55,211 nucleotides of DNA, taken from positions 1-55,211 of IMG/VR virus record IMGVR_UViG_3300036859_000142. One strand, written 5' to 3'. Position 1 is the first letter of the stretch, and each line of letters opens with the position of its first letter. The notes beneath the pieces are model-generated. The model ran no database searches. It saw only the letters and a program-made list of their open reading frames with translations, and was not told the DNA's origin. Positions 1,918 through 47,542 of this stretch are shown one piece after another. A program made the position numbers and the translations under genes. This DNA comes from a virus. Taxonomy: Duplodnaviria > Caudoviricetes.

Positions 1918-2358
1918 ATGGCTGGAAACGAAAACAGCGGGCGCCGCCCGAATCCCACGTCATTGACGGTGCTCCGCGGGAACCCAAGTAAGAAAAGGCT
2001 TAATGAAAATGAACCTGTCCCACCACCTGGAGAGATTCAGAAACCGGCCGAGTTGTCGGCGGCTGGCGAGCAGGTGTGGGATGAGCTCGCGCCGATCTGC
2101 TTGGCCATGGGCACGCTGACGACGGCTGACGTGCGGCCGTTTACCACGATGTGCGAATTACAGGCGACGTTCACCGCGGCGGCCAGGGGGAAGGGCAGCG
2201 CGGCCTTTGACGCGAAGCTGGAGCGCGAGACGGCGAACGCGCTGCGGCCGTATTACGCGCTGTTCGGCTTGGAACCGGTTTCGAGGGCGCGGATTCAGGT
2301 GCCAAAAACTGGCCAGCCGGCGCCACCGGCCAGTAAGTGGGCAGGGGCGCTGAAGTGA
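1918..2358 (+). CDS. terS: Terminase small subunit (P27 family)
   Basis: GRRPNPT...LRGNPSKKRLN...P..LS......W...FGL.P.SR.RI motifs. Confidence 0.92.
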   Translation: MAGNENSGRRPNPTSLTVLRGNPSKKRLNENEPVPPPGEIQKPAELSAAGEQVWDELAPICLAMGTLTTADVRPFTTMCELQATFTAAARGKGSAAFDAKLERETANALRPYYALFGLEPVSRARIQVPKTGQPAPPASKWAGALK

Positions 2359-3254
2359 CGCAGGAAACGGCGGCGGCCAGGGCGATTCGGTTAGTCAACC
2401 AGTTGACGCATACGAAGGGGCCGTTTGCCGATCAGCCGTTCAACCTTCGGCCGTGGCAAGTCCAGATTCTGAAGAAGTTGTTCAAGACGAAGCGCGACGG
2501 CTTGCGGCAATACCGGACGTGCCTGCTGATGCTGCCTCGGAAGAACGGGAAGACGGAACTCGCGGCCGCGCTAGCGATTTACTTTCTGCTGTTCGACAAC
2601 GAGATCGGGGCTGAGGTGTATTCAGCGGCAGCGGATAAGGACCAGGCGGCGCTCGTGTTCAACGTGGCTGCGCAGATGATCAGGAACGATGCCGAACTCC
2701 TGGCGCAGTGTGAACTGATCGATTCGCAGAAACGGATCGTGAACCGGCGCAGCGGGAGTTTCTATCGGGCGATTTCCGCTGAGGCCTACTCCAAGCACGG
2801 GTTCAACGCGTCGGCGGTGATTTATGACGAGCTGCACGCGGCACAGAGCCGGGAACTCTGGGATGTGCTGACGACGTCACAGGGCGCGCGGAAACACCCG
2901 TTGACACTAGCGATCAGCACCGCCGGGTACGACCGCCATTCGATCCTCTGGGAACTCTACCAGCACGCGAAGAAGGTATTAGAGAATCCCGCGCTCGATC
3001 CGACGTTCCTTGCAATTCTGTATGAAGCACCGATCGACGCCGACTGGACGGATGAACGCGTCTGGAAGAAAGCGAATCCGGCGCTCGGCGATTTCCGCAG
3101 CTTGGAAGAAATGCGTGTCGCTGCTGCGCGAGCTCAGGAAATCCCAGCGCAAGAGAACGTCTTCCGCAGACTCTATTTGAACCAATGGACGGAGCAGGCG
3201 GCACGGTGGATCCAGATGCCGACCTGGGATGCCTGCTGTGTGGTGAACGCATGA
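2355..3254 (+). CDS. terL: Terminase large subunit, N-terminal ATPase part (separate ORF)
   Basis: LRPWQ motif, Walker A PRKNGKT, Walker B VIYDELH, ISTAG motif III; GTGA overlap with terS. Confidence 0.95.
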   Translation: MTQETAAARAIRLVNQLTHTKGPFADQPFNLRPWQVQILKKLFKTKRDGLRQYRTCLLMLPRKNGKTELAAALAIYFLLFDNEIGAEVYSAAADKDQAALVFNVAAQMIRNDAELLAQCELIDSQKRIVNRRSGSFYRAISAEAYSKHGFNASAVIYDELHAAQSRELWDVLTTSQGARKHPLTLAISTAGYDRHSILWELYQHAKKVLENPALDPTFLAILYEAPIDADWTDERVWKKANPALGDFRSLEEMRVAAARAQEIPAQENVFRRLYLNQWTEQAARWIQMPTWDACCVVNA

Positions 3255-3910
3255 CTCGCGCTGAATACCGCGCGAGCCTTCGTGGCCGACGGATGTATGT
3301 CGGACTGGACCTCAGCTCCACGAAGGATCTGACGGCTGCCGTCGGAACGTTTCCGGATGACGACGGCTTCGATGTGCTCCCCGCGTTCTTTTGTCCGAAG
3401 GATACGATCAAGGAAAGGTCGACACGGGATCGTGTGCCGTACGAGCAATGGATGCGCGATGGTCAGCTGATAGTCACGCCTGGAAACGTCGTGGATTACG
3501 AGGCGGTCCGCAAGCAGTTGCTAGATTGGGCCGACGAATTCGATCTACGCGAGATTGCCTACGATCCGTGGAACGCCACCGATCTCGTGACACGTCTTCA
3601 GGCGCAAGACGGCTTCGCCTGCGTGCCGATGCGCCAGGGGTTTGCCTCGCTGTCCTCGCCGACGAAATCACTCGAAAAGGCGGTCTTGTCCCGGACGTTG
3701 CGGCACGATGGCAATCCGATTTTGCGGTGGAACATGTCGAACGTGTCGGTCGAAAGCGATCCGTCAGGGAATATCAAAGTCTCCAAGAAAGTCTCGACGG
3801 AGCGGATCGACGGCGCGGCGGCATTGGTGATGGCAGTGGACGTCATGGAACGGAACAACAGCCAGAAGACGCCGAATTATGAAGTCCGGTTCTTTGGAGG
3901 GGTGCGGTAA
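3251..3910 (+). CDS. terL: Terminase large subunit, C-terminal nuclease part (separate ORF)
   Basis: YVGLDLSSTKDLTA, IAYDPWNA, RIDGAAAL RNase H-like motifs; ATGA overlap with the ATPase ORF. Confidence 0.93.
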   Translation: MTRAEYRASLRGRRMYVGLDLSSTKDLTAAVGTFPDDDGFDVLPAFFCPKDTIKERSTRDRVPYEQWMRDGQLIVTPGNVVDYEAVRKQLLDWADEFDLREIAYDPWNATDLVTRLQAQDGFACVPMRQGFASLSSPTKSLEKAVLSRTLRHDGNPILRWNMSNVSVESDPSGNIKVSKKVSTERIDGAAALVMAVDVMERNNSQKTPNYEVRFFGGVR

Positions 3911-4225: not shown

Positions 4226-7200
4226 GTGGCTGGGGAGCAATTTCCTGCCCGATCTGTCGAGGAAGCGCTCGTCGCCAAGTACCTCGAAGTTGAAATCAAG
4301 CATCTCGAACGGCGGGAGACACGCGTCCCCGCTGTTCGCATGGGCGCCTTTCTCACGGCTGTCAACGATGTTCTGCGGAAGTGGTCAGTTGACGACGTTC
4401 GGAATCTGAATTCCCGCGGGGAAGAGACGCCGCCCAGCTACGACATCATTCAGTTGAATTCCACGCAGAGCGCAGACTTCCTCGTCGATGGCATGCGGTT
4501 TCTGCATACGGCGGATGTTGCCAACGGTCAGCGCGCCAGCCTCCGAGTGCAAGCAGCCTGGTATGGCTTGGACGTCACGGCCTATGGGTTGCGCACTACT
4601 GGCACGGCAGAAAAGCTCCTCGGCGAAATCACCCACCGGTCCAAGGAAATCAATTTTCTGAAGGGCGAGGCGTTTTCCCTCTCAGGGGAATTCCTGCCGA
4701 AGACTGACGAGACATTCGCGGATTTATTCCTTGAGCAGAAGAATGCCGCGGCGCTTGACCGCGTAGTGAAATTGGTGAACGCCCGCGGGAAGACACTCGA
4801 GAACCGTGGCGTGCTGTTAATGGGACCGCCTGGCACTGGTAAAACGCTGGCGGCGCGGATCGTCAGAAACGAAGCCAAGGCCACGTTTATCTGGGTCAGT
4901 TCGCGAGACTTCCATTACAGCGGCAGCTTCGGCGGTTTCACGCAGGCGTTTGACATCGCGCGCGAATGCGCCCCATCCGTCGTCGTCTTTGAGGACATCG
5001 ATAACTGGTTGTACGACACGACGGTCGACCTGATTAAGACCGAGATGGACGGCGTGTCGAAGAGCGCCGGCGTTGTCACGGTCATGACAACGAACTACCC
5101 AGAACTCCTACCTGCCGCGCTAATTGATCGCCCTGGTCGTTTCCATGACGTGTTGAAGTTTGACCTGCCGAACGAGGCTGCGAGAAGCCAGATGCTGCAT
5201 CGCTGGCTCCCCAGCCTCACCACGGCTGATGTTATCCGAGCAGTCAAGGCGACCGCCGACTATAGCGGCGCGCACGTCCGAGAATTAGCCAGGTTTGCGA
5301 AGATCATTGCGGAGCAAGACGCGCTACCGATCGATCAGGCGCTCACCGTTGCGCTCACCAAACTCGCCGAACAACGCGACCTGATCACGACGACGCAGCG
5401 GACAGGGTCTCGTTATCGGATGGCGCCGGAGCTGCTGCAGAAGGCTGGCGCCACGACGGCGCGCATTCCGCAGCGCGCCTACGCACTGCTGCGTGTCAAG
5501 TCGATCGATGGAACACGACGCGTGTTCTCAGGCATGGCGACGACACCAGAACCAGATCGGCACGGGGACATCGTCGATCCGGCCGGTGTGAAGTTCCACA
5601 ACCCGCTGCCGCTACTGTTCCATCACGATCCCAAACACCCCGTTGGTACGGTGACCTTCCATCCGGCGACCACCGCCGGGATCGCCTTTGAGGCCACCTT
5701 GCCGGTCATCGAGGAGCCCGGCATCTTGAAAGATCGGGTCGATGAGGCCTGGCAGTCGATTAAGGCCGGCCTCATCACGGGCGTCTCGATTGGGTATCGC
5801 GTGGTCGACAACGCGATCCAAGTTCTCAAGGATGGCTCCGCAAAGCTGCTCAAGACGGAGGTCTTCGAATTAAGCCTCGTCACGATTCCAGCCAACGCGC
5901 AAGCCACCATCCTCAACGTCAAATCGCTTGATCTGGCCGCGTCCGGCCTTCACTCGCCCGGCGTTACGGGCCTCCCCGTTGTCCGAGCGCGCAAGGACGC
6001 GCCAGCTATGACTATCACCGAACAAATTACGCAATGGTCGAATACGCGTGCGCCGAAAGCCGCGCGGATGACCGAGTTGATGGCCAAGGCCGCTGACACC
6101 GGCGTGACCCTCGACGAGACACAGGCCGAGGAATACGACGGCCTCGAGCAGGAGATCAAGAGCATCGATGTGCATCTCACGCGGCTGCGTTCGGCTGAAC
6201 AAGCCAACCTCGCGGCCGCGACGCCGATCACGCCTATCACGACACAGACCAAGGCGTCCGAGATGCGTTCCGGCATCTCACAGGTACATGTCAAGCCGAA
6301 TGTGCCCAAGGGCACGGCGTTCACCCGCTACGTGATGGCGAAGATCGTCGGCAAGAACAGCCTGTCCGATGCGATTCGCTACGTCGAACAGAACCAGCAG
6401 TGGATGGATCAGACGCCGGAAGTCGCGCTGGCCCTGAAGGCCGTTGTGAATCCTGGCACGATCGCGGAACCTGCATGGGCGGCGCCGCTCGCGGTGGCCC
6501 GGCCGATGGTCGACGAATTCCTCGACATCCTCCGACCGGAAACGCTGATCGGCAAGATTCCAGGCTTGCGGAATGTGCCGTTCAACATCTCCATTCCGGT
6601 GCAGACCGGTGGTGGGACGTACAACTGGGTCGGAGAAGGCGCCCCGAAGCCGGTGGGCCAGCTCCAGTTCGCGAGCGTGACGCTGGGGATCGCGAAGGCC
6701 GCGGGGATCATCGTGATCTCGGAAGAGCTCGCGAAGATCTCCAGTCCGTCGGCGGAAGGCGTCGTACGCAACGACATGATCCGCGGGATGGCGCAGTACC
6801 TCGATCTGCAGTTCATCGATCCGACGATCGCGGCGGTGGCGAATGTCTCGCCGGCCTCGATCACCAACCTCGCGAACGGCTTCGCCACGGCCGGCACCTC
6901 GGGCGACAACGCGCGCACCGACATCAAGAAAGCGATTACCTTGATGACGGCGGCGAACTATCCGATCTCGGAAGTCGTGCTGATCATGTCTGAGGCGAAC
7001 GCGTTCGCACTGTCAACCGCGCTCAGCACTAACGGCGTGCGTGTTAATCCGGATCTGACGGCGAAGGGCGGCAACATTCTCGGCGTGCCCGTCGTGACGA
7101 GTCAGGCGGCTGGGCAAGTTGTCGCACTCGTGCATGCGCAGTCGATTCTGTTTGCTGATGATGGTGGTGTGAACATCGATGTGAGCCGTGAGGCGAGTGT

Positions 7201-7357
7201 CGAGATGAACACCGCACCGACGTCACCGGCGACGGCATCGAGTGTCTATATCTCGCTGTGGCAACTGAACTTGATAGGTTTACGCGCAGAGCGCTTCATA
7301 AATTGGAAACGCGCGCGGACTACGGCCGTAGTGTATACGACCGCAACTTATGTGTAA
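4226..7357 (+). CDS. AAA+ ATPase - HK97-type prohead protease - major capsid protein fusion (1043 aa)
   Basis: Walker A GPPGTGKT (~4823-4846), Walker B VVFEDID, TTNYPE...DRPGRFH; protease FSGMATTPEPDRHGDIV...LLFHHD...GVSIGY...FELSLVTIPAN; capsid from MTITEQ (ATG 6008) with YNWVGEGAPKP and SLWQLNLIGLRAERFINW. Confidence 0.93.
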   Translation: MAGEQFPARSVEEALVAKYLEVEIKHLERRETRVPAVRMGAFLTAVNDVLRKWSVDDVRNLNSRGEETPPSYDIIQLNSTQSADFLVDGMRFLHTADVANGQRASLRVQAAWYGLDVTAYGLRTTGTAEKLLGEITHRSKEINFLKGEAFSLSGEFLPKTDETFADLFLEQKNAAALDRVVKLVNARGKTLENRGVLLMGPPGTGKTLAARIVRNEAKATFIWVSSRDFHYSGSFGGFTQAFDIARECAPSVVVFEDIDNWLYDTTVDLIKTEMDGVSKSAGVVTVMTTNYPELLPAALIDRPGRFHDVLKFDLPNEAARSQMLHRWLPSLTTADVIRAVKATADYSGAHVRELARFAKIIAEQDALPIDQALTVALTKLAEQRDLITTTQRTGSRYRMAPELLQKAGATTARIPQRAYALLRVKSIDGTRRVFSGMATTPEPDRHGDIVDPAGVKFHNPLPLLFHHDPKHPVGTVTFHPATTAGIAFEATLPVIEEPGILKDRVDEAWQSIKAGLITGVSIGYRVVDNAIQVLKDGSAKLLKTEVFELSLVTIPANAQATILNVKSLDLAASGLHSPGVTGLPVVRARKDAPAMTITEQITQWSNTRAPKAARMTELMAKAADTGVTLDETQAEEYDGLEQEIKSIDVHLTRLRSAEQANLAAATPITPITTQTKASEMRSGISQVHVKPNVPKGTAFTRYVMAKIVGKNSLSDAIRYVEQNQQWMDQTPEVALALKAVVNPGTIAEPAWAAPLAVARPMVDEFLDILRPETLIGKIPGLRNVPFNISIPVQTGGGTYNWVGEGAPKPVGQLQFASVTLGIAKAAGIIVISEELAKISSPSAEGVVRNDMIRGMAQYLDLQFIDPTIAAVANVSPASITNLANGFATAGTSGDNARTDIKKAITLMTAANYPISEVVLIMSEANAFALSTALSTNGVRVNPDLTAKGGNILGVPVVTSQAAGQVVALVHAQSILFADDGGVNIDVSREASVEMNTAPTSPATASSVYISLWQLNLIGLRAERFINWKRARTTAVVYTTATYV

Positions 7358-7385: not shown

Positions 7386-7440
7386 GTGCGCGTCTAGGCT
7401 TAGCGGCCGAAATACCTGCCCTGATCAGGCTGACGCGCAC
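7386..7440 (+). ncRNA. Structured three-way-junction RNA element (copy 1)
   Basis: GTGCGCGTC/GACGCGCAC 9-bp stem enclosing TA-GGCT(TAGC)GGCC-GAAA and a CCTG..CAGG hairpin; same architecture at 15348. Confidence 0.55.
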
Positions 7441-7480
7441 GCTCTTTTTATCAGGTCGCTTTCTTATCAGGAGGAAGCAA

Positions 7481-29242: not shown

Positions 29243-29506
29243 ATGATTCGGCCTCGCGTCGTCGTTCCCTTCACGCCTGCTACCGTATCCGTCGATCCGG
29301 CCGCGTACGAATGGCTGATGCTGTGGCGTCGAATGACCCCCTCCCAGCGGGCGGCGCATCTCCGCCTCGCTCAGTGCGCTGCGCGCGCAACACGTCATCA
29401 ATCGCCTGTTCGATATACCGGCGATCGGACGGGCTTCCTGATCCGTGAGACCTTAATCCACCAGCGGCGCTGCTCCTTTTCTTCCGGGAGCAGCCCCGCA
29501 AAGTAA
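29243..29506 (+). CDS. Hypothetical protein convergent with the repressor
   Basis: GGAGG SD and upstream TTGCAA-18-TAGACT promoter-like sequence. Confidence 0.45.
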   Translation: MIRPRVVVPFTPATVSVDPAAYEWLMLWRRMTPSQRAAHLRLAQCAARATRHQSPVRYTGDRTGFLIRETLIHQRRCSFSSGSSPAK

Positions 29507-29856
29507 TCAAACATCGCCATGACCCGTTCCTGCACGTCGAGCGGGAAGTCGCGCCAGTGTGCAATCAAGCGCACTTCGTCCGGTGCCAATTCGTGCAGCG
29601 TGTTGCTCGGTAGCATGACCAGCAGGGCCGGCGGCACTCCAAAGTACTCGGCAATGACGTCCACATGCTTTAGACGGATCGCGTGCGAATCGCGGCCGTT
29701 GAGGGCGTTAGAAAGGGTGCCTGGCTCGATCCCGAGCTTTCCAGCGAGGCCCTTCTGCGTTCGGCGCTGGTAGGCCCGTGGTTTGTGCCGTTCCCGGTCG
29801 AATAGTTCTTTCGTGCGGAGCCGGACCCGCTCCGGTAAATCCTTGTCGTGCGCCAT
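29398..29856 (-). CDS. XRE-family HTH repressor (cI-like)
   Basis: TQKGLAGKLGIEPGTLSNALNG...IAEYFGVPPALL; divergent from the cro-like gene. Confidence 0.85.
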   Translation of the reverse strand: MAHDKDLPERVRLRTKELFDRERHKPRAYQRRTQKGLAGKLGIEPGTLSNALNGRDSHAIRLKHVDVIAEYFGVPPALLVMLPSNTLHELAPDEVRLIAHWRDFPLDVQERVMAMFDYFAGLLPEEKEQRRWWIKVSRIRKPVRSPVYRTGD

Positions 29857-29926
29857 GTTGCACGGGGTAGTTACCACGGCTGCACGGAAAGAGTGCGGAG
29901 GCTTAGGGAAAGGCTAATAATGCCTA

Positions 29927-29962: not shown

Positions 29963-30283
29963 ATGGTTAGGAAAACGCTAACGCTCAACCCGCCAGCCAA
30001 GAGCGTGGCCGAATGGCTGGAGCGCACGGGTACCAACATCACGGAGCTGGCCGCCATGGTGCGGGCCAAGGGATTGCCACTCACGCTCGGTGGCCTGTCA
30101 AACGTTTTGCGCCGTTCGAGGCCCTGCCGTCTCGCCGTCGCGATCGCGTTGTCAGACATTACCGGTGTCCCGGTGCAGCAACTGGTGGCATGGGGCAAGG
30201 CTAAGCGCTATCCGGTGGGTGAAACACGCACACCGAAACGTCGGAAGTCCACGAAAAACGAACCTTCTGGGGCGGCTGCCTAA
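29963..30283 (+). CDS. Cro-like HTH regulator
   Basis: TNITELAAMV...LSNVLR..RP....A.ALSDITGVPVQQL. Confidence 0.75.
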   Translation: MVRKTLTLNPPAKSVAEWLERTGTNITELAAMVRAKGLPLTLGGLSNVLRRSRPCRLAVAIALSDITGVPVQQLVAWGKAKRYPVGETRTPKRRKSTKNEPSGAAA

Positions 30284-38700: not shown

Positions 38701-39020
38701 GCGCTCTCGCTCGTAGGAAAGCTACGCAAAGGACCGCGCGAGCGGTGCCGGTTGTGTTAAGGGGACCAAAGGATGAACGGATCGCGGGGCGTGTAGCGTT
38801 CGCGGATCGTGCGGTGCAATTCCGCACCCGGCACCTAACCAGGGGTGCTGTCCTCCCCGCCGCTGAGGCGTCGTCGTAAGGGCCTAACGTGGCGGCCCAG
38901 CACACAAAAAGCCACTACATAGCGCGTACGACACTGGGGCCTAACGCTTTGAGGGATAGGTAAAAGCCGTCGTGTATTTGTTCTTCACGTAGATCGTTTC
39001 GGATCGTACAGAGGCCCGAA

Positions 39021-39359
39021 TTGTCGCACCGCGCCTTCGAAGAATTTTGGAAACGCTATCCGAGAAAAGTCGGAAAGCTCGCCGCGAAACGAAAGTGGGA
39101 CGCCTTGAATCCTGGCCCGATTGTGATCGCGCAGATCATGGATACCCTCGCCTGGCAGATCGAGGAGTGGACGGATCCGCGGTTCATTCCACACCCGGCG
39201 ACGTGGTTATTTCAAGGCCGCTACTTGGACGAACGGCCGGCGGTGCAGGCCGAAGACTCCGAGAGTTACCTGGAACGCATTGGCTTTTGCTTCCACGATC
39301 CCAAGTGCAAAGACTCCGACGTGTGCCGAGCGAAACGCGCGGCGGAGAAACGCGCGTGA
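39021..39359 (+). CDS. Replication-initiator C-terminal-like small protein
   Basis: FEEFWKRYPRKVGK.AA...W...FIPHPATWL..GRY.DE. Confidence 0.8.
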   Translation: MSHRAFEEFWKRYPRKVGKLAAKRKWDALNPGPIVIAQIMDTLAWQIEEWTDPRFIPHPATWLFQGRYLDERPAVQAEDSESYLERIGFCFHDPKCKDSDVCRAKRAAEKRA

Positions 39360-40067: not shown

Positions 40068-40109
40068 TCAGACCGCGCCTTGAACCTTCCAGTAGTCGGG
40101 CTTCTTGAA
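40068..40109 (-). pseudogene. Displaced C-terminal tail of the NYN gene
   Basis: Reads FKKPDYWKVQGAV-stop; joins HPTSGHT after removing the IS and one 8-bp flank. Confidence 0.7.
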
Positions 40110-40157
40110 GGGAATTATATACTTGACTCCCGTGGTCATTTCGAGCCATAATCCTCT

Positions 40158-41087
40158 ATGTCGAAAAGCACTATTTCCACCTTCCAATTGTTCGAGCGGT
40201 TCCCCGATAAGGAATCCGCCCGCGTCTATTTCGAGAAGCGGCTGTGGCCGAACGGCGTCGTCTGCCCGGTCTGCAAGAGCGGCGACCGGATCACCGTCAG
40301 GAAGGGCGGCTACTACCGCTGTAACGCCTGTAGCGAGGACTTCACCGTCCGCACGGGCACCGTCATGGAGCGCAGCCATATCCCGCTCCACAAGTGGCTC
40401 TACGCCATGTACCTGCTCGTCACGGCCCGCAAGGGCATCAGCTCCATGCAGCTCGCCAAGGAAATCGGCGTGACCCAGAAGTCCGCCTGGTTCATGCTCC
40501 ACCGGTTGCGCGAAGCCTGCGGCGGGAAGAACCTGACGAAGTTGCGCGGCATCATCGAAATCGATGAGTGCTTCGTCGGCGGGCTGGAAGGCAACAAGCA
40601 CGCGCACAAGAAACTGCACGCGGGGCGCGGGCCAGTCGGCAAAACGGCCGTACTCGGGATGCGCGAGCGCGGCGGGCGCACGCTGGCGCGTCCCTCGCAG
40701 CAGATGACCTTTGACGAAATCCACGGCTCGATTCACGAGCAGATCGAAGTCGGGTCGCAGCTCTACACCGACGATCACGCCATCTTCGACGGTCTGGACG
40801 GGCTGTTCTACCGTCACGACACGATCAACCACTCCACCGGGGAATACGCACGCGGCGACGCGCACACGAACAGCATCGAAAGCGTTTGGGCGGTTCTGAA
40901 GCGCGGGCTGATGGGTGTCTATCATCAGGTCAGCCCGAAGCATCTCGGCCGCTACGTGGACGAGTTCACGTTCCGGCTGAACGAGGGCAACGTCAAAATC
41001 CACACGCTTGACCGGCTCGATTCGTTCGTGAGCGGCATGGCCGACAAGCGGCTCACCTACAAGAGGCTCATCGCATGTCAAAACTGA
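40158..41087 (+). CDS. IS1595-family (ISXO2-like) transposase
   Basis: Zn ribbon CPVC...CNAC, KGISSMQL HTH, IEIDE, YTDD, HTNSIES.W...K, Y.DEF.FR.N; leaderless TTGACT..CATAAT promoter. Confidence 0.96.
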   Translation: MSKSTISTFQLFERFPDKESARVYFEKRLWPNGVVCPVCKSGDRITVRKGGYYRCNACSEDFTVRTGTVMERSHIPLHKWLYAMYLLVTARKGISSMQLAKEIGVTQKSAWFMLHRLREACGGKNLTKLRGIIEIDECFVGGLEGNKHAHKKLHAGRGPVGKTAVLGMRERGGRTLARPSQQMTFDEIHGSIHEQIEVGSQLYTDDHAIFDGLDGLFYRHDTINHSTGEYARGDAHTNSIESVWAVLKRGLMGVYHQVSPKHLGRYVDEFTFRLNEGNVKIHTLDRLDSFVSGMADKRLTYKRLIACQN

Positions 41088-41206
41088 AAACGCCGAAGGC
41101 TCTGGACGCCATCGCGGACCTGGTGCTGGCCTACCGGCCGAAGGCGAAGTCGAAACCGGCGCGGCGACGGAAGCGCCAAGCCACGAAGATCGCCAAGGCG
41201 AAATAA
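41075..41206 (+). CDS. Small basic IS-associated protein (43 aa)
   Basis: MSKLKTPKALDAIADLVLAYRPKAK... Confidence 0.6.
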   Translation: MSKLKTPKALDAIADLVLAYRPKAKSKPARRRKRQATKIAKAK

Positions 41207-41207
41207 C

Positions 41208-41942
41208 GTGCTGGTGCTCTCTCTCTTTCCTGGTATTGGCTTGCTCGACATGGCGTTCGAGCAAGAAGGGTTTTGCATCGTGCGCGGACCTGATGCGCTG
41301 TGGGGCGGCGACGTGGCGCTGTTCCATCCGCCTGCGGACAAGTTCGACGGAATTATCGGCGGGCCGCCCTGCCAAAGCCATAGCCGCTTCAGGCATCTGG
41401 CGGAAGCAACCGGCAAGAGCACCGCGCCGGATTTGATTCCCGAGTTCGAGCGGTGCGTAGCTGAGGCGCGGCCGTCCTGGTTCCTGATGGAGAACGTGAT
41501 CGACTCGCCCGAGCCCGTTGTCGAAGGCTACAAGGCGTTCCGGTTCATCCTGCAAAACCGGCATCTGGGCGAAATCCAGAATCGAGAACGCGCGTTTACC
41601 TTCGGGACAACCGGAGCGCGCCAGGACCTGCGCCGCTACATTCAGCTCGCGCCGTTGGAGAACGTCGAATGGTGCGGGGCGATCCTCGCATCTGGCGGCC
41701 GGCGACCAGGCACGGAGTCCCGCCGCGGTAAAACGCAGGGCGCTTGGCACGGCTTCGTCGGGCCGCGCGAGTTCGCCCACGCGCTGAAGGCGCAAGGACT
41801 GCCCGAAGATTTCCTGGCTGACTCGCCCTTCAAGATGAAGGAACGATTTCGAGTCGTCGGCAACGGCGTCCCGCTCCCGATGGGCCGAGCAATCGCCCGA
41901 GCCGTGCGGGAAGCGACCGAGCGCCGGAAGCAGACGGCCTGA
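41208..41942 (+). CDS. DNA (cytosine-5) methyltransferase, IS passenger
   Basis: Motif I SLFPGIG, IV GGPPCQ, VI MENV, VIII QNRER, X VGNGVP. Confidence 0.93.
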   Translation: MLVLSLFPGIGLLDMAFEQEGFCIVRGPDALWGGDVALFHPPADKFDGIIGGPPCQSHSRFRHLAEATGKSTAPDLIPEFERCVAEARPSWFLMENVIDSPEPVVEGYKAFRFILQNRHLGEIQNRERAFTFGTTGARQDLRRYIQLAPLENVEWCGAILASGGRRPGTESRRGKTQGAWHGFVGPREFAHALKAQGLPEDFLADSPFKMKERFRVVGNGVPLPMGRAIARAVREATERRKQTA

Positions 41943-41979
41943 GTTACGATTATGCGAGGGAGTCATGTATATAATTCCC

Positions 41980-42605
41980 TTCAAGAAGGTGTGCCCGGAA
42001 GTGGGATGAACAACGTCGTCAGGGAAATGGCAGAACTTGAGGAAATCGGTGGGAAGGTTCTTCCCGCTCGTCGCAGCTTGCCGCAATTCAGAGGCGTGCC
42101 TTTCATCGACGCCGTCCCTGGTAGGCGCGTAGACAACGACCCGCTTGAGGGGAAAGCGTTCCCGAATTACTTTAACCACCGGCACAAGGTCAGAGTCGCC
42201 GCTGACGAGAATCAACCGGTCAGACAGGTCGCGATATGCGTCGTCCATCATTTGCACAGCGATAGCTACGTCGGTTCGCTTTTCTTCCGGCTTGGTGAAG
42301 AAGCGATCACCAGTCAATGTGCAGCCCGGATGGGTGCAGTTGACCTTCTTTTCTTTAAACTTGCCCACGACGACATTTACCGATGGCAGCGTGCTCAGCG
42401 CGCCAATGTACGAGTACTGCCGAACTTGGGCGACCCCCGAGACGATGGATGTGAAGAAGCGGATATGGCGGATGTCGTCGTCTTTTCTAAGGCGACGACA
42501 AAATTCGGCCAGATTCAGCCACTTGTGCGGGGTGCCCTTGATGGCTCCGTAGTAGAAATTGAAGCCGTCAATGTAGACGATGGAGCGGTTGGCTGGAGTG
42601 GTCAA
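41980..42605 (-). CDS. NYN/LabA-like (PIN-fold) ribonuclease, interrupted near its C-terminus by the IS
   Basis: VYIDGFNFYYG, EEKRTDVAIA..M..DA, ILVSGDSDLVP. Confidence 0.92.
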
Positions 42606-43936: not shown

Positions 43937-44025
43937 GAAGCCACGCAGCTTCACCGCTGCCATCGCGTACCCCGCAGATGAGCTTCAGGGCTGTGCAGTT
44001 CGCACCTGCACAGCCCATTGTTTTT
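43937..44025 (+). ncRNA. Putative small structured RNA with terminator
   Basis: Extended -10 TGCTAGAAT; multibranch GAAGC..GCTTC; 11-bp GGGCTGTGCAG hairpin followed by ATTGTTTTT. Confidence 0.4.
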
Positions 44026-44301: not shown

Positions 44302-44487
44302 ATGACTCGTGACGAGGTGGAGACACACGAAAAAGCTGTCTTACTGGGTTTGGTGACGGGTGCGTATATCGCACGGAAAGTCGAATGGCCGTTGGCAGAA
44401 TTTATGCGCGCTGCGCTGCTGGCGTGGGAATGGAAAAGGCACGAAGCGTCACCGTCCGCCGACGCGGTACGGGAGGAGCCTCGGTGA
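44302..44487 (+). CDS. Hypothetical protein
   Basis: 61 aa; ATGA overlap. Confidence 0.45.
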   Translation: MTRDEVETHEKAVLLGLVTGAYIARKVEWPLAEFMRAALLAWEWKRHEASPSADAVREEPR

Positions 44488-44525
44488 ACACCGGATTCGC
44501 CTTCGCGTATGGGAAATTTCCTTCT
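44461..44525 (-). repeat. CGCG-N37-CGCG dispersed element, copy 1
   Basis: Minus strand CGCGAAGG...CCCGTACCGCGTC. Confidence 0.7.
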
Positions 44526-44561
44526 TAGCTTTTGAGGTTTTGGATGCCCCGAGACACCCCT

Positions 44562-44873
44562 ATGTGGCATTTCAACGAATTAACACCGGCCGAAGATGAG
44601 CGGTTGGCGCTGTTGCTCGAAGAGTGCGGCGAAGTCATTCAGGTCATCGGCAAGATTCAGCGGCACGGGTACCTGAGTCACGACCCAACATCACAGGCCC
44701 AGTATCCACCGAATAACCGCGATTTGCTGGCGAAAGAACTCGGGGATGTGCTCGCGGCGATCACGATGATGGAAGCGGGCCGGGATATTGTCTCTAGCGA
44801 AATACTGACTCGGCGCGACGTGAAGCTTAAGAAGGTTCGCAAGTATCTCCATCATCAGCCGGAGCCAAAGTGA
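44562..44873 (+). CDS. MazG-like NTP pyrophosphohydrolase
   Basis: LLLEECGEVIQ...K..RHG...LAKELGDVLA. Confidence 0.8.
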   Translation: MWHFNELTPAEDERLALLLEECGEVIQVIGKIQRHGYLSHDPTSQAQYPPNNRDLLAKELGDVLAAITMMEAGRDIVSSEILTRRDVKLKKVRKYLHHQPEPK

Positions 44874-44925
44874 TGCCTGGCGCCACCCCAGCCGATCCCC
44901 GACAGCCGAGAGAGGCAGACATCTG

Positions 44926-45114
44926 ATGAAGGTTAGCGTTGTTCGCTTATCGAGTGGGTATTTCCACGTACGCGGCGTTGGGCCGTGTAATTGGGCGCAA
45001 CCCGCATACTGGCCGTGTAGCGAAGAGTCATTGCGAAAGGCCGCGTTTCCACAAGCCTGCGAAGAATTTATCCGCTCAGCCTTGGCGCTCCCGCCGCAGG
45101 AGGAGGACGAGTGA
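44926..45114 (+). CDS. Hypothetical protein
   Basis: 62 aa with SD. Confidence 0.55.
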   Translation: MKVSVVRLSSGYFHVRGVGPCNWAQPAYWPCSEESLRKAAFPQACEEFIRSALALPPQEEDE

Positions 45115-45122
45115 CGGATCGG

Positions 45123-45181
45123 AAAGATTTTGCGCGCGTGGGCGGACAACGCTGACTCGACCTACGGGATCTACCGCGTCA
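45123..45181 (+). repeat. CGCG-N38-CGCG dispersed element, copy 2
   Basis: AAAGATTTTG-CGCG...GGATCTAC-CGCG-TCA. Confidence 0.75.
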
Positions 45182-45199
45182 TAAGCCGGAGGTGATTCG

Positions 45200-45598
45200 A
45201 TGCGCGGCGACTTCGACGAAGACGAGATTGAAGACGAGAGGTATTACCAGGACATTGAGGATCCGTACTGCCATCGGTGCGACAACAAGGGCACCATCAT
45301 CGTCTGTGTGGACGATATGTGTCGCGGCGCGGGCGAGTGTATGCACGGCGACGGGGAAATCATCTGTCCCGATTGCAAAGGCGAGAACAGTAGTCTCACT
45401 GAAGCGGAGATGCTGATCCGGTTGCACGCCGAGTGCATGCGGTATCCGTCCGACAGTCTGACGGCGCAGCGATTAGGCGTCTCACGGGGTCATCTGTGCC
45501 ACGTCCTGAAGGGGCGAAAGCCGATCACGGAGAGTCTCGCGCTGGCGATGGGCTATGAGCGACAGGTGTTCTATCGTAAACGTCAGAGGCCAAAGTGA
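45200..45598 (+). CDS. Zn-finger plus HTH protein
   Basis: CHRC...C.DD.C....C.HG...CPDC, then AQRLGVSRGHLCHVLKGRK; GGAGGTG SD. Confidence 0.7.
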   Translation: MRGDFDEDEIEDERYYQDIEDPYCHRCDNKGTIIVCVDDMCRGAGECMHGDGEIICPDCKGENSSLTEAEMLIRLHAECMRYPSDSLTAQRLGVSRGHLCHVLKGRKPITESLALAMGYERQVFYRKRQRPK

Positions 45599-45605
45599 GG
45601 TGTGG

Positions 45606-46043
45606 ATGCCCCGAGACACCCCAGCCGAGCCCCGACAGAATGAGAAAGAGAAAGATTTAGAGTCGCGAATGGACACACAAGCTAATTCCAACGACGCCCG
45701 TACCGCGCCGACCGTTGCGCCCAGTTCGCACACGCCTGGACCGTGGGATTACCGGCCGATGGAGTTTGACGATTGGGGATGGGTGCGCGCTCGCAACGGC
45801 GGCGAGATCGTCGCGCGCGCTGGCGGCTTCGCGTCTGAGGAAGAGCAGGCGAGACACCGCACGGCTGGTACGGACCCATACGAGGCCAACGCGCGTCTGA
45901 TCGCCGCTGCGCCTGACTTGTTGGTCGCGCTCAGGATGTGCCGAGCCGTCATTGGTTGCGGTTCACGTGGAGCACGGATCCGCGCTGAACCAGAAGCGAT
46001 TGCGATCGCTGAGGCCGCCATCGCTCGCGCGGAGGGCCGATGA
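45606..46043 (+). CDS. Conserved phage protein (HTPGPW / NARLIAAAPDLL family)
   Basis: HTPGPW...EANARLIAAAPDLL...AAIARAEGR. Confidence 0.8.
   Translation: MPRDTPAEPRQNEKEKDLESRMDTQANSNDARTAPTVAPSSHTPGPWDYRPMEFDDWGWVRARNGGEIVARAGGFASEEEQARHRTAGTDPYEANARLIAAAPDLLVALRMCRAVIGCGSRGARIRAEPEAIAIAEAAIARAEGR
45651..45710 (+). repeat. CGCG-N36-CGCG dispersed element, copy 3
   Basis: AAAGATTTAGAGT-CGCG-AATGG...CCCGTAC-CGCG. Confidence 0.7.
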
Positions 46044-46768
46044 GCGGAGAAGAGAATCGTTTTCTTGTTGGTCAGGAGCACATGCCTGACTGCCCGGCGA
46101 CGACGCCACCGTTTGCGGGTAGTTGCACCTGTCCGAAAGACGGTGGGAACCAGCCTCCAAGTGGAGTGCGCGGAGATCCAGGGGTCGATCGTACGTCCAA
46201 CGATGACACTCGCGACAACGGATCTTCTTTATCTTCAACAACTTATCTGGGTGACGCCAGCCCCGGACTCGTGGAGAGGCTGATAAAAGCTGCGCGTAAT
46301 GCGGATTGGATACAAGTGGTGCTGAATCAAGGCCCGCCATGTTTTCATTTCGAGGCTGATCGCGTGCGGTTCTGTCTACGCGCACAGCGGTGGGCTGGGC
46401 ATTCTGACGACGCTGGTGACATCGGGCACCGATTTATCTCACTAGCCGATTTACTTGAAGCCGCGTTGGCCCTCTCCGGAGCGGAGCTCGCCCAACTCAA
46501 GAGCGACCTTGCAAGAACAACTGAGGCCTGGGCTATTGCAGCTGATGATCGAGACGAGGCTAACGGATTATTGCGGGCGGCGGAAGCCGAACTCGCCCGC
46601 CTGGCGCCGTATGTCCAACACAAGAGCGATTGCGCGTCTCAGGGTGGATACGACCATGTCGGCCAAGACGAAGACGGGAATGCCGTTCATCTTGGTCACG
46701 AACCTTATCCCTGCACCTGCGGGTTACAGCAAGAGCACGACGCGCCCACCCAGCAGGAGACGCCGTGA
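46040..46768 (+). CDS. Hypothetical mosaic protein
   Basis: 242 aa; coupled at both ends. Confidence 0.6.
   Translation: MSGEENRFLVGQEHMPDCPATTPPFAGSCTCPKDGGNQPPSGVRGDPGVDRTSNDDTRDNGSSLSSTTYLGDASPGLVERLIKAARNADWIQVVLNQGPPCFHFEADRVRFCLRAQRWAGHSDDAGDIGHRFISLADLLEAALALSGAELAQLKSDLARTTEAWAIAADDRDEANGLLRAAEAELARLAPYVQHKSDCASQGGYDHVGQDEDGNAVHLGHEPYPCTCGLQQEHDAPTQQETP
46166..46231 (-). repeat. CGCG-N38-CGCG dispersed element, copy 4
   Basis: Minus strand AAAGAAGATCCGTTGT-CGCG...GGATCTC-CGCG. Confidence 0.65.
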
Positions 46769-47022
46769 CCAACTGGCAGCCGATTGAGACAGCGCCGAAG
46801 GATGGGACCGTGCTCCGTCTCAAGCGCGTCTACAACGGTGCCGTCATTGCCGATGGGCGCGGCTATTTCGGCAGCGCGACAATCCACTATGCGATCGAAG
46901 ACGGTGGACCCGCGACATTCCACCTCATCTGGGCTGCTGAGGATGGGCGCCATTTCTTTCCGATGCCCACGCACTGGGCTCCTGTAGCGCCGCAGGAGGA
47001 GGAGCCACGAGTAGAAAAATGA
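46765..47022 (+). CDS. DUF551-like phage protein
   Basis: WQPIETAPKDGT...PTHW.P. Confidence 0.8.
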   Translation: MTNWQPIETAPKDGTVLRLKRVYNGAVIADGRGYFGSATIHYAIEDGGPATFHLIWAAEDGRHFFPMPTHWAPVAPQEEEPRVEK

Positions 47023-47023
47023 G

Positions 47024-47083
47024 AAAGACTATGCGCGAAGGTGTACTCCCAAAGTCATTCGCTAAGACTTCCGTACCGCGTCA
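47024..47083 (+). repeat. CGCG-N39-CGCG dispersed element, copy 5
   Basis: AAAGACTATG-CGCG-AAGG...TCCGTAC-CGCG-TCA. Confidence 0.75.
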
Positions 47084-47104
47084 ACGGCTGGAGGTGATTC
47101 GATC

Positions 47105-47542
47105 ATGAGCAGAAGCGGCTATTCGGACGATTGCGACGACGAGATTCCCATCCAGTTGTATCGTCAGGCTGTTTGTAGGGCCACGAGAGGCTACCGAGGG
47201 CAGCATCTCCTTCGCCAGCTCCTCGCTGCGTTGGATGCGATGCCCTCGAAACGCCTTATCACCAAAGCCATTCGGGACACGTCAGGAGATGTCTGCGCAC
47301 TCGGCGCGCTGGATCCAAATGCGCCAGCCTCTGATGCTGACGATTTAGACGACTGGGAATACTCGCAAAAGCTCGCCAAGCATTTCAATGTGGCTCGTGC
47401 GCTCGCCTCCGAGATCGTCTACATGAACGACGAATACGACGCGTGGCGAACGGACAACGAGACGCCAGAGGAGCGCTGGACGCGCATGCGCGCATGGGTA
47501 GCCAGCCAGATTTTGCCCACCCAGACGCCTGAGACCCCATGA
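47105..47542 (+). CDS. Conserved phage hypothetical protein
   Basis: MSRSGYSDD...RGQ.LLR.LL.ALDAMP.KRLI...VCALG...EIVY.NDE...ETPE.RW.RMRAWV. Confidence 0.8.
   Translation: MSRSGYSDDCDDEIPIQLYRQAVCRATRGYRGQHLLRQLLAALDAMPSKRLITKAIRDTSGDVCALGALDPNAPASDADDLDDWEYSQKLAKHFNVARALASEIVYMNDEYDAWRTDNETPEERWTRMRAWVASQILPTQTPETP

Follow-up and report, generated by a model that had tools for sequence, protein, structure and literature searches.

Gene-boundary repeats are regarded as a driving force of mosaic evolution in phages, but few families have been defined at the sequence level. Those defined so far lie within single phage groups, namely the PeSLs of T4-type phages and the start-associated sequences (SAS) and stoperators of mycobacteriophages. 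In the part of the report cited here, PeSLs are described as promoter-early stem-loop regulatory cassettes in which an AT-rich lead with a stop codon is followed by a conserved middle part and then by a Shine-Dalgarno sequence and a start codon; they include a promoter of the sigma-70 consensus as well as a stem-loop that acts as terminator, and are proposed to drive modular shuffling via recombination (Arbiol et al., 2010; PMC2839356). The start-associated sequences (SAS/ESAS) of Cluster K mycobacteriophages comprise, in the corresponding part of their report, a 13-bp GGGATAGGAGCCC-type sequence located just 5' of the start codon and nearly always in one orientation (SAS), and two conserved arms, which are 17-bp inverted repeats, around a variable spacer of 4-13 bp (ESAS) (Pope et al., 2011; PMC3203893).

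Here we analyse a stretch of viral DNA of 55,211 nt (the window), in which four loci are part of a previously undescribed family of ~90-nt repeats. This junction element, with its clear boxes and fixed length, is common to phages with unrelated structural genes, which makes it a handle for testing gene movement between phages against a regulon. Readings of what it does differ, and the best of them, a portable junction cassette, is put forward tentatively, at somewhat less than an even chance.

A repeat family in five viral records

The initial annotation had described five pairs of CGCG around variable cores as copies of one dispersed repeat, and all five pairs, with core lengths of 37, 38, 36, 38 and 39 nt, are present as it had listed them. 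For the bare motif CGCG-N36-39-CGCG, the window has 29 occurrences, whereas shuffled sequences average 43.4 (sd 6.3) and 99 in 100 of them contain at least 29; enrichment over shuffled sequence thus fails for the motif as such, and it is extended similarity that sets four of the loci (E1, E2, E3 and E5; Table 1) apart. In blastn comparisons, E2 and E5 align over 108 nt at 68.5% identity (E=7e-7), E3 and E5 over 57 nt (E=0.005), and E1 and E5 over 34 nt (E=0.11). An HMM built from E2 and E5 only finds E3 (E=0.021) and E1 (E=0.11) as its next matches in the whole genome, both nearly full length, after which the best match falls to E=12. Model R2, trained on 11 copies that all come from other phages, recovers exactly E1, E2, E3 and E5 in the 55-kb genome, its best non-family match in the window being partial and scoring 9.0 bits. 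Within this genome, the copies are indeed confined to a 2.6-kb region, as judged by the HMM and by profile scans with R1 and R2.

The fifth claimed copy, E4, is ruled out as a family member. It has no blastn similarity to the other copies, its matches to R1 (2.3 bits, E=8.9) and R2 (4.7 bits, E=1.2) are limited to the A-rich lead, and its block-PWM chain score of 15.1 bits is inseparable from the background tops of 14.9 and 14.1. The background level of E4 and the lack of enrichment of the bare motif would suit a chance motif, or a CRISPR- or guide-like unit with variable spacers, but this explanation is scarcely credible and is refuted for E1, E2, E3 and E5, which R2 picks up after training on other phages only and which show no relevant Rfam match. 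In a CRISPR unit, direct repeats that are almost identical and measure roughly 24-48 nt alternate regularly with unrelated spacers; here the conserved 'repeats' measure just 7-12 nt, and the copies lie 0.5-1.3 kb apart with no regular array. The core interiors, taken at first to be unrelated, are homologous, if diverged (compare E5 with G007e, E3 with G012a and E2 with G007g), and the same subfamilies occur in unrelated phages; the suggestion of guide- or spacer-like units, including a CRISPR repeat-spacer unit, is therefore rejected.

In total, the family comprises 17 copies in five viral records (four in the window, seven in G007, three in G012, two in G006 and one in G009), with 3-7 copies per complete genome. 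Every copy sits at a gene junction, 11 co-oriented with the genes and six inverted, and both orientations are present in each of the four genomes available for whole-genome comparison, of which three are complete and G006 covers about 68%. The picture of a dispersed repeat with conserved ends and fixed length, in both orientations at gene boundaries, was accordingly correct. The phages that carry the element are soil phages with unrelated structural genes; their genomes have few proteins in common (25-55% identity) and almost no common DNA. Subfamilies nevertheless extend across genomes in differing gene contexts and orientations (E5 with G007e, E2 with G007g, and E3 with G012a, G006a and G007a). 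Four control records of 157 kb in all gave no match at E<=1, the GenBank phages contained no match to the element, and the strict pattern had no copy across the genomes of 185,579 species. At the gathering threshold of Rfam 15, the only match in the window was int-alpA at 7387-7455, away from the element, and at E<=5 the region 43.6-47.3 kb gave only a spurious IRES match, in agreement with the earlier statement that the element fits no named family.

Table 1. Positions of the element copies and associated features in the window
Feature	Positions	Strand	Basis or remark
E1	44439-44530	-	R1 62.5 bits (training copy); R2 31.7 bits, E=4e-9
E2	45113-45201	+	blastn to E5 E=7e-7; R2 12.0 bits, E=0.006; G007g subfamily
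E3	45642-45732	+	R2 51.2 bits, E=3e-15; near G012a, G006a, G007a
E5	47014-47105	+	R2 32.2 bits, E=3e-9; core like inverted copy G007e
E4 (claimed fifth copy, rejected)	46129-46249; CGCG pair 46169-46214	-	inside ORF 46040-46768
Flank common to E2 and E5 (CGCCGCAGGAGGAGGA..ACGAGT)	45092-45112; E5 counterpart 46987-47013	+	pairwise alignment
Possible 5' fragment of a further copy	44906-44931	+	by eye; speculative
Cro/XRE-type HTH gene, candidate trans factor only	29963-30283	+	BLAST clustering

Each of the four copies has its own relation to the neighbouring genes. E1 is inverted with respect to the surrounding plus-strand genes, overlaps the last 16 codons of gene 44302-44487 (...ADAVREEPR, then stop) and also covers the spacer ahead of a MazG-like gene starting at 44544. 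E2 takes up all of the interval that separates ORF 44926-45114 from gene 45200-45598 (zinc ribbon and HTH-like), its 3' end reading GGAGGTGATTCG and then ATG. E3 is translated, extending the phrog_1273 protein 45606/45669-46043 at its N-terminus by EKEKDLESRMDTQANSNDARTAPTVAPSS; the PHROG match of this protein begins only at residue 41, and the ATG at 45669 sits within the left box of E3. E5 extends from the TGA of the DUF551-like gene 46765-47022 to the ATG of gene 47105-47542 (phrog_25637). At the start of ORF 44926-45114, the possible 5' fragment listed in Table 1 shows an A/G-rich lead and ATGAAGG and lacks CGCG; it is undetected by R1 or R2, and a 34-nt repeat precedes both this fragment and E3.

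Anatomy and constraint on nucleotides

From 5' to 3', the element consists of an A-rich lead (GAAAGA...), a left box, a diverged core of 32-36 nt, a right box and a 3' block. The invariant boxes, CGCG(AATGGACA) and TACCGCG, are 32-36 nt apart in 17 of 17 copies. The lead resembles a ribosome-binding stretch and usually contains the stop codon of the upstream gene, as in E5, G007a and G007f. The left box is (T/G)CGCGAATGGACA, and its ATG serves as the start codon in E3, G006a, G007a, G007d and G012a, all five of which have cores of 33 or 36 nt. The right box is TACCGCG(Y)CG, with ACC-GCG kept in 16 of 17 copies, and the 3' block G(S)TGATTCGATC follows 15 nt past it. In E2 and E5, which both terminate in GGAGGTGAT and then ATG, this block is a perfect Shine-Dalgarno site before the downstream start codon. 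The inverted copies E1, G007c and G007e stop 10-14 nt short of the next start codon.

Co-oriented copies are often translated, A-rich lead and both boxes included, as N-terminal leaders in a single frame. In all eight of those translated, the right box gives x-Thr-Ala in the frame of the downstream ORF, so the element might be taken for a functional N-terminal peptide tag (MDT..D.RTAS) on different early proteins, the untranslated copies being decayed relics. The five starts at the left-box ATG with cores in multiples of three would fit such a tag, as would E2 and E5, which retain the frame except for one stop codon each (in E5, read in the E3-type frame, a TAA at 47063). This explanation is very improbable, however, and largely refuted by the absence of purifying selection on amino acids: dN/dS lies between 0.8 and 2.6 in six of six pairs, variability at third codon positions does not exceed that at first positions, and identity is lower for amino acids (30-55%) than for nucleotides (50-73%). 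R-M-D alone is invariant in the peptide alignment, and at the nucleotide level neither the wobble positions of ACC-GCG nor the rare CGA codon varies; the inverted non-coding copies are well conserved (30-60 bits), and the A-rich lead is nearly identical in coding E3 and inverted non-coding G007e. Furthermore, in a set of 5.8 billion proteins, none contained three 5-residue words of residues 1-40. With dN/dS about 1 in translated copies, the constraint therefore acts on nucleotides and not on amino acids. Such constraint on a translated stretch is a trap for gene callers, and the apparent starts of at least three genes in the window are shifted or extended by the element.

The right box, moreover, co-varies with the genome. 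Its identity is 0.697 within and 0.601 between genomes (permutation p=0.0004), compared with p=0.20 for the left box and p=0.18 for the core, and its predominant signature is CG-TACCGCG in the window, GC-TACCGCG in G007 and CT-TACCGCG in G012. The cores are as diverged within one genome as between genomes, which means that there was no recent burst.

A genome-specific right-box signature is among the features that would be expected of a sense/antisense RNA regulon, in which inverted copies transcribed as part of the operons would pair via the boxes with co-oriented translation starts and thereby tune early genes. The left box covers a start codon, and sense and inverted copies of one genome have long exact boxes in common (13 nt in the left and 18 nt in the right box for G007b and G007c; 12 nt of the right box for E1 and E5). 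We consider this regulon quite improbable. It would explain the presence of both orientations in all four genomes compared whole, but chance alone would also produce this for any element without a fixed orientation; the right box is found 25-35 nt away from the start codons in actual use, and no structure or terminator delimits a discrete RNA. RNA folding gave z-scores around 0 on both strands with no conserved structure, the consensus structure being a trivial CGCG:CGCG pairing of -2 to -3 kcal/mol without covariation, and end-to-end duplex energies were -11.28 kcal/mol for cognate and -11.23 kcal/mol for non-cognate pairs (permutation p=0.46).

Readings of the element at gene junctions

The cassette recombination site, the two-site operator and the tiny mobile element that the initial annotation had proposed all survive, in modified form, as leading readings, with the caveat that the five records hold no tyrosine or serine recombinase gene and that the element shows no terminal inverted repeats (none in the anchored alignment) and no clear target duplications. 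The search for these recombinases (PF00589 and PF00239) was negative in all five element-bearing records, and PF00589 was detected in 14 of 14 positive-control genomes.

The portable junction cassette, consisting of stop codon, A-rich ribosome site, ATG and leader and shuffled by recombination in a manner resembling the T4 PeSLs, would work at the level of the nucleic acid, as a portable gene-start or junction module plus a homology patch. Recombination in or next to the cassette would attach new accessory genes and carry it between phages, probably by means of the phage's own single-strand-annealing proteins; co-oriented copies would turn into 5' leaders or N-terminal extensions, and inverted copies would survive at junctions, being tolerated nowhere else. 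Recombination as the means of spread and the provision of functional translation signals are both inferred. An ERF- or RecT-type annealing protein is encoded in every genome compared, with ERF in G006 and G012 and a RecT in G007 that was assigned from its translation alone. The flank common to E2 and E5, 16 nt of it identical, falls in coding sequence at the 3' ends of two upstream ORFs that are unrelated. In one public run that holds this DNA and may be the source sample, contigs branch at 45082-45111, 2 nt before E2 (depth 31.3 to the left and 36 to the right); this break is a single hint of recombination. Several points count against the cassette. Neither a recombinant nor an empty-site pair was seen directly, the six inverted copies out of 17 are superfluous for a gene-start module, the conserved boxes of 7-12 nt are short for homologous recombination, and a genome-specific right box fits a genome-specific factor better than passive homology. 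In addition, the stem-loop and sigma-70-type promoter of the PeSLs are lacking: between 43.5 and 48.5 kb, no promoter-like sites were found against 1.7 expected, for an E. coli-type consensus that may not be the host's.

The main rival accounts for the right box through a factor. It holds that the element is a bipartite cis site whose two boxes are bound on the DNA by a putative phage or host factor at the junctions of early accessory genes, where it may act independently of orientation as a roadblock, insulator or operator, with a logic like that of the mycobacteriophage stoperators. We regard this as unlikely. The tight spacing of the boxes in all 17 copies, about four helical turns, their invariance while the core drifts, the use of both orientations and the co-variation of the right box with the genome all point to it, as does a Cro/XRE-type HTH family (HTH_3 in three of four members), which is the only protein common to all four genomes compared. 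An HTH profile search of five control records found nothing in four and a generic partial HTH match in the fifth. The HTH family is generic, however, and its G006 member was missed by single-sequence search, which makes for a weak correlation; neither box occurs in the CI/Cro intergenic region of the window (29878-29926), and the fixed frame and multiple-of-three cores of translated copies are not predicted by a binding site. A doubtful extension of this idea is that the element represents a new class of phage cis-element, a two-box junction cassette read by a rapidly co-evolving putative trans factor, the candidates for which would be a Cro-like HTH protein and the RNA made from inverted copies. 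If so, accessory early genes would be tied into one regulon, and the element would move horizontally among unrelated soil phages, being translated as a neutral N-terminal leader.

Less probable still is a non-autonomous MITE-like element, mobilised by a host or phage transposase and surviving only at gene junctions. It would explain the many diverged copies in both orientations, the subfamilies that unrelated genomes have in common in differing contexts, and copies translated through without amino-acid constraint, as is likewise the case for Rickettsia palindromic elements. ATGAG stands on either side of E5, and six homologues of gene 47105-47542 in other viral contigs occur without the element, the L002 homologue having a plain AATGAGCAGA junction; yet such a duplication-like flank is seen at only one of 17 copies, the ends of most copies are not fixable to the base, and AATGA(G) also lies 5' of E3 and G007a without a 3' partner. 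The window (two genes) and G006 encode IS1595-family transposases, but G007, with seven copies, has no IS1595 transposase and in G012, with three, none was found by tblastn of the window ORFs. The missing terminal inverted repeats and end-to-end complementarity, the zero count of the strict pattern in the species' genomes and the lack of a recent burst also speak against mobilisation of this kind.

Comparison with known systems

Several known repeats resemble the element in part. With attC and shufflon sfx sites it has conserved ends, a variable middle and a position at cassette boundaries in common and, with sfx, both orientations inside coding sequence. These sites require a tyrosine recombinase, which for attC is a cognate IntI encoded alongside it, and attC also an imperfect internal dyad folded into a hairpin on one strand; the element has no hairpin on either strand and its genomes lack PF00589 and PF00239 genes, which rules out an integron attC site. 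Neisseria Correia elements, Rickettsia palindromic elements and ERIC are palindromic or have terminal inverted repeats. They resemble the element in size (about 100 nt), in the dispersal of diverged copies in either orientation along gene boundaries, and in that they sometimes provide expression signals or are read through in frame; the element has no such symmetry and is so far found in phage genomes only.

SAS/ESAS, as far as the cited part of their report describes them, are similar in being repeats at the translation starts of some non-structural genes that are conserved across related genomes, whereas the boxes of the element are not inverted repeats, lie farther apart, belong to inverted copies in six of 17 cases and are unrelated in sequence.

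The PeSLs, also the subject of Comeau et al. (2014; PMC4122927), are likewise short cassettes in multiple copies that cluster in the plastic region of accessory genes, and E2, E5, G007f and G012b span the interval from the upstream stop codon to the downstream Shine-Dalgarno sequence and start codon just as PeSLs do. Unlike the PeSLs, the element has neither an E. coli-type sigma-70 promoter nor a stem-loop, and it is found in either orientation, frequently translated, and is common to phages with unrelated structural genes.

The repeat family and its anatomy

The initial annotation proposed five dispersed copies of an element bounded by paired CGCG tetranucleotides, and the five pairs lie where it had placed them (see the table for all coordinates). 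The bare pattern CGCG-N36-39-CGCG, for which an enrichment test had been suggested, shows no enrichment (29 occurrences, 43.4 expected); the real signal is an extended similarity, not this pattern. By blastn, E2 (here 45100-45218) aligns with E5 (46999-47120) over 108 nt (E=7e-7), E3 with E5 over 57 nt (E=0.005) and E1 with E5 over 34 nt (E=0.11), while E4 matches no other copy. An HMM made from only E2 and E5 recovers E3 and E1, both near full length, as its next matches in the whole genome, followed by a match at E=12. In a block-PWM chain E4 reaches 15.1 bits, against 14.9 and 14.1 bits for the top background matches. A family model, R2, made from 11 copies with those of the window left out, scores E3 at 51.2, E5 at 32.2, E1 at 31.7 and E2 at 12.0 bits (E=0.006 for E2); the next-best match in the window is a partial one of 9.0 bits, and E4 receives 4.7 bits (E=1.2). 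Four of the proposed copies are therefore real, and E4 is false according to blastn, the PWM chain and R2.

A two-gap pattern derived from E3 and E5 led to two further viral contigs, and a looser pattern led to more. The sequence-only covariance model R1, run across whole records, found seven copies in G007 (56 kb, complete), two in G006 (36 kb), three in G012 (49 kb, complete) and one in the fragment G009, as well as the same four copies and nothing further in the window. The element-bearing genomes are very distant, with few common proteins (25-55% identity) and hardly any similarity in nucleotide sequence. In four unrelated viral records (157 kb) the family model had no match at E<=1, and isolated matches scoring about 13 bits in G010, G011, G013 and L017, forced by the search pattern and located in coding sequence, were taken as chance. 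The fixed-spacing pattern TACCGCGTC-N7-GGAGGTGATTCG had no match in viral contigs, the strict element pattern no copy in the genomes of 185,579 species, and the zinc-ribbon/HTH protein encoded at 45200-45598 no match among species genomes. Among GenBank phages, blastn found nothing for E3 and one 30-nt chance match (E=0.9) for the copy G007d; residues 1-40 of the E3-bearing protein, used as a protein-search query, yielded no candidate, and the box strings are absent from the relevant literature. Upstream of the gene at 47105-47542 the element is absent at six of six homologous loci, hence there is no orthologous conservation at this site.

From 5' to 3', the element consists of an A-rich lead (GAAAGA, doubled in some copies), a left box, (T/G)CGCGAATGGACA, located 4-14 nt further 3', a core of 32-36 nt in all 17 copies, a right box, TACCGCG(Y)CG, and a 3' block, G(S)TGATTCGATC or its decayed version, which lies exactly 15 nt past the right box (14 in one copy). 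The core interiors had been described as unrelated, which does not hold: E5 resembles G007e, E2 resembles G007g, and E3 resembles G012a, G006a and G007a. The subfamilies thus cut across genomes, gene contexts and orientation. Guide- or spacer-like units, also proposed initially, were rejected, the copies not being arranged in a CRISPR-like array.

Gene junctions and translation through the element

All copies are located at gene junctions, 11 of them co-oriented with the local genes and 6 inverted. In the co-oriented copies E5, G007a and G007f the upstream gene ends, with its stop codon, within the A-rich lead or immediately 5' of it. Downstream genes start in one of two modes, either at an ATG within the left box (E3, G007a, G007d, G012a and, on an ERF gene, G006a) or just past the 3' block, which in E2 and E5 reads GGAGGTGAT, a perfect Shine-Dalgarno site. 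The inverted copies E1, G007c and G007e span the upstream gene's last codons and reach to 10-14 nt before the next start.

The five copies with a left-box start have cores of 33 or 36 nt. The reading of the right box is x-Thr-Ala, in frame with the downstream ORF, in 8 of 8 co-oriented copies that are translated, and the same frame is open in E2 and E5 save for a single TAA in each. Four inverted copies overlap real ORFs, and all of these are read in a single phase, (D/G)-A-V. Where a gene follows, the element is thus kept translatable. Amino-acid constraint on the translated copies is absent: dN/dS ranges from 0.8 to 2.6 (six pairs), third codon positions vary no more freely than first ones, and R-M-D alone is invariant in the peptide alignment. 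A peptide tag was rejected on this ground. ACC-GCG is unchanged in 16 of the 17 copies, a rare CGA codon is fixed, and the lead GAAAGAGAAAGA(T/C)TTAGAG is near-identical between E3, a coding copy, and G007e, which is inverted and non-coding; together with the dN/dS values, these features indicate that the element is constrained as nucleic acid. Two further candidates were discarded, a conserved small ORF within the element (E2, E3 and E5 would need three different frames) and a minus-strand gene behind E1 (a 159-aa ORF of junk composition, without an in-frame start).

Other gene starts are also of note. An exact 20-nt repeat, TGGATGCCCCGAGACACCCC, makes up the starts of both the MazG-like and the E3-bearing gene, whose proteins both begin MPRDTP; it is followed by a 34-nt repeat of 85% identity. 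This duplicated module represents a second type found at gene starts, adjoining E1 and E3. In the window's ERF gene the opening codons, GERELVTREDAPQ, are similar to the element's lead and left box in both protein and DNA, and the ERF gene of G006 carries a full element copy and 13 extra residues. The window's ERF gene may have at its 5' end either an ancient, eroded copy or the sequence from which the element arose. Between the window and G007, blastn finds a single match, the start of a DUF551-like gene (49 nt, 86% identity; 44478-44526 in G007). This gene, at 46765-47022 in the window, adjoins an element copy in the window, G007 and G012.

The genome carrying the repeat

With its 55,211 bp and direct terminal repeats, the window is a complete virus record; its structural genes (portal, tape measure, large terminase) are lambda-like. 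Downstream of a CI/Cro pair lie the recombination genes ERF and YqaJ and a Dam-type methylase; these are followed by two IS1595-family transposase genes, the run of small genes at 44-48 kb in which the element copies sit, and beta-helix proteins. The sole public run with DNA of the window is a soil metagenome (DNA), possibly its source; no RNA run is listed.

Features of the window discussed in the text
Feature	Position	Strand	Remark
Large terminase ORFs	2337-3254; 3185-3910	+	overlapping, different frames
1043-aa ORF	4226-7357	+	upstream of portal gene
int-alpA match (Rfam)	7387-7455	+	spacer 3' of 1043-aa ORF
CI-like HTH gene	29398-29877	-	faces Cro-like HTH gene
Cro-like HTH gene	29963-30283	+	opposite CI-like HTH gene
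ERF gene, first codons	34230-34270	+
Segment without convincing ORF	38701-39020		320 nt
Replication initiation homologue	39021-39359		fragment-sized
845-aa ORF	40068-42605	-	NYN-domain match
Transposase-like ORF	40158-41087	+	overlaps 845-aa ORF
Apparently non-coding segment	43724-44030	+	directly 3' of IS1595-family transposase ORF
Terminator-like hairpin and T-run	43988-44025
E1	44439-44530	-	element copy
20-nt repeat	44541-44560; 45603-45622		exact
34-nt repeat	44872-44905; 45605-45638
Contig overlap	45082-45111		two bases 5' of E2
E2	45113-45201	+	element copy
E3	45642-45732	+	element copy
E4	46169-46214	-	background
DUF551-like gene, start	46752-46800
E5	47014-47105	+	element copy

The transposase-like ORF has a match (E=2e-51) in G006, to its IS1595-type transposase, so that it looks like a real gene and is a second transposase paralogue, which makes the 845-aa minus-strand ORF at least partly spurious. 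The two terminase ORFs align to successive parts of the G007 terminase and could reflect a frameshift, either programmed or an assembly error. The 1043-aa ORF combines, by PHROG matches, an ATPase-like N-terminus, a head-maturation protease and the major head protein, a fusion and a gene order that are both unusual; the int-alpA match behind it scores 35.9 bits (gathering score 35.8). The segment preceding the replication initiation homologue contains repeated GGCCTAACG motifs and hairpin-like segments. The apparently non-coding segment behind the transposase ORF has several strong hairpins and no Rfam match across its length, and may represent a structured RNA, about 300 nt long.

Function and spread of the element

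Copies from one genome resemble each other more in the right box (0.697) than do copies from different genomes (0.601; p=0.0004), and only the right box differs in this way (left box, p=0.20; core, p=0.18). Its form is mostly CG-TACCGCG in the window, GC-TACCGCG in G007 and CT-TACCGCG in G012, which suggests either homogenisation limited to the box or its co-evolution with a factor particular to each genome. This signature favours the main rival explanation, namely that the element would be a two-box binding site for a candidate trans factor, which we consider rather unlikely. Cro/XRE-type HTH proteins are the only family common to all four genomes compared, and their profile finds nothing in four of five control records; this correlation carries little weight, given the generic fold and the lack of element boxes between the CI and Cro genes of the window.

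Neither single folds nor alifold on 4 and 13 copies, on both strands, revealed a conserved RNA structure, and no long-range pairing of the element's ends was detected. ARAGORN found no tRNA gene, and Rfam contains no relevant family for the element. The element might also form a sense/antisense RNA regulon, which seems quite improbable. Sigma-70-type promoters and terminators are absent within the elements; compared by eye with consensus sequences, none of the sigma-54, ECF-sigma and Caulobacter-type promoters, the RfaH ops site, DnaA boxes, GANTC sites and Chi sites fits all copies. Tyrosine or serine recombinase genes were found in none of the five element-bearing records. The element might also be MITE-like, which seems improbable: it has no terminal inverted repeats, and the IS1595 transposase was not found in G007.

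E2 and E5 have 16 identical bases inside two unrelated upstream ORFs. Contigs of the public soil run end and begin at the 30-nt overlap next to E2, with a depth of 31.3 to the left and 36 to the right. This suggests a strain variant with another left flank, exactly at the 5' edge of E2, and is consistent, as one indirect hint, with a population-level mosaic joint.

The reading that we tentatively prefer, with slightly less than even confidence, is that the element may be a portable junction cassette which supplies the signals for stop, ribosome binding, start and leader, and which recombination shuffles from phage to phage. In architecture it comes closest to the PeSL cassette of T4-type phages (PMC2839356); for PeSL, the joining of copies in mini-circles has been shown. 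Compared with PeSL, the element is without a sigma-70 promoter and a stem-loop, and it occurs in both orientations and is translated through.
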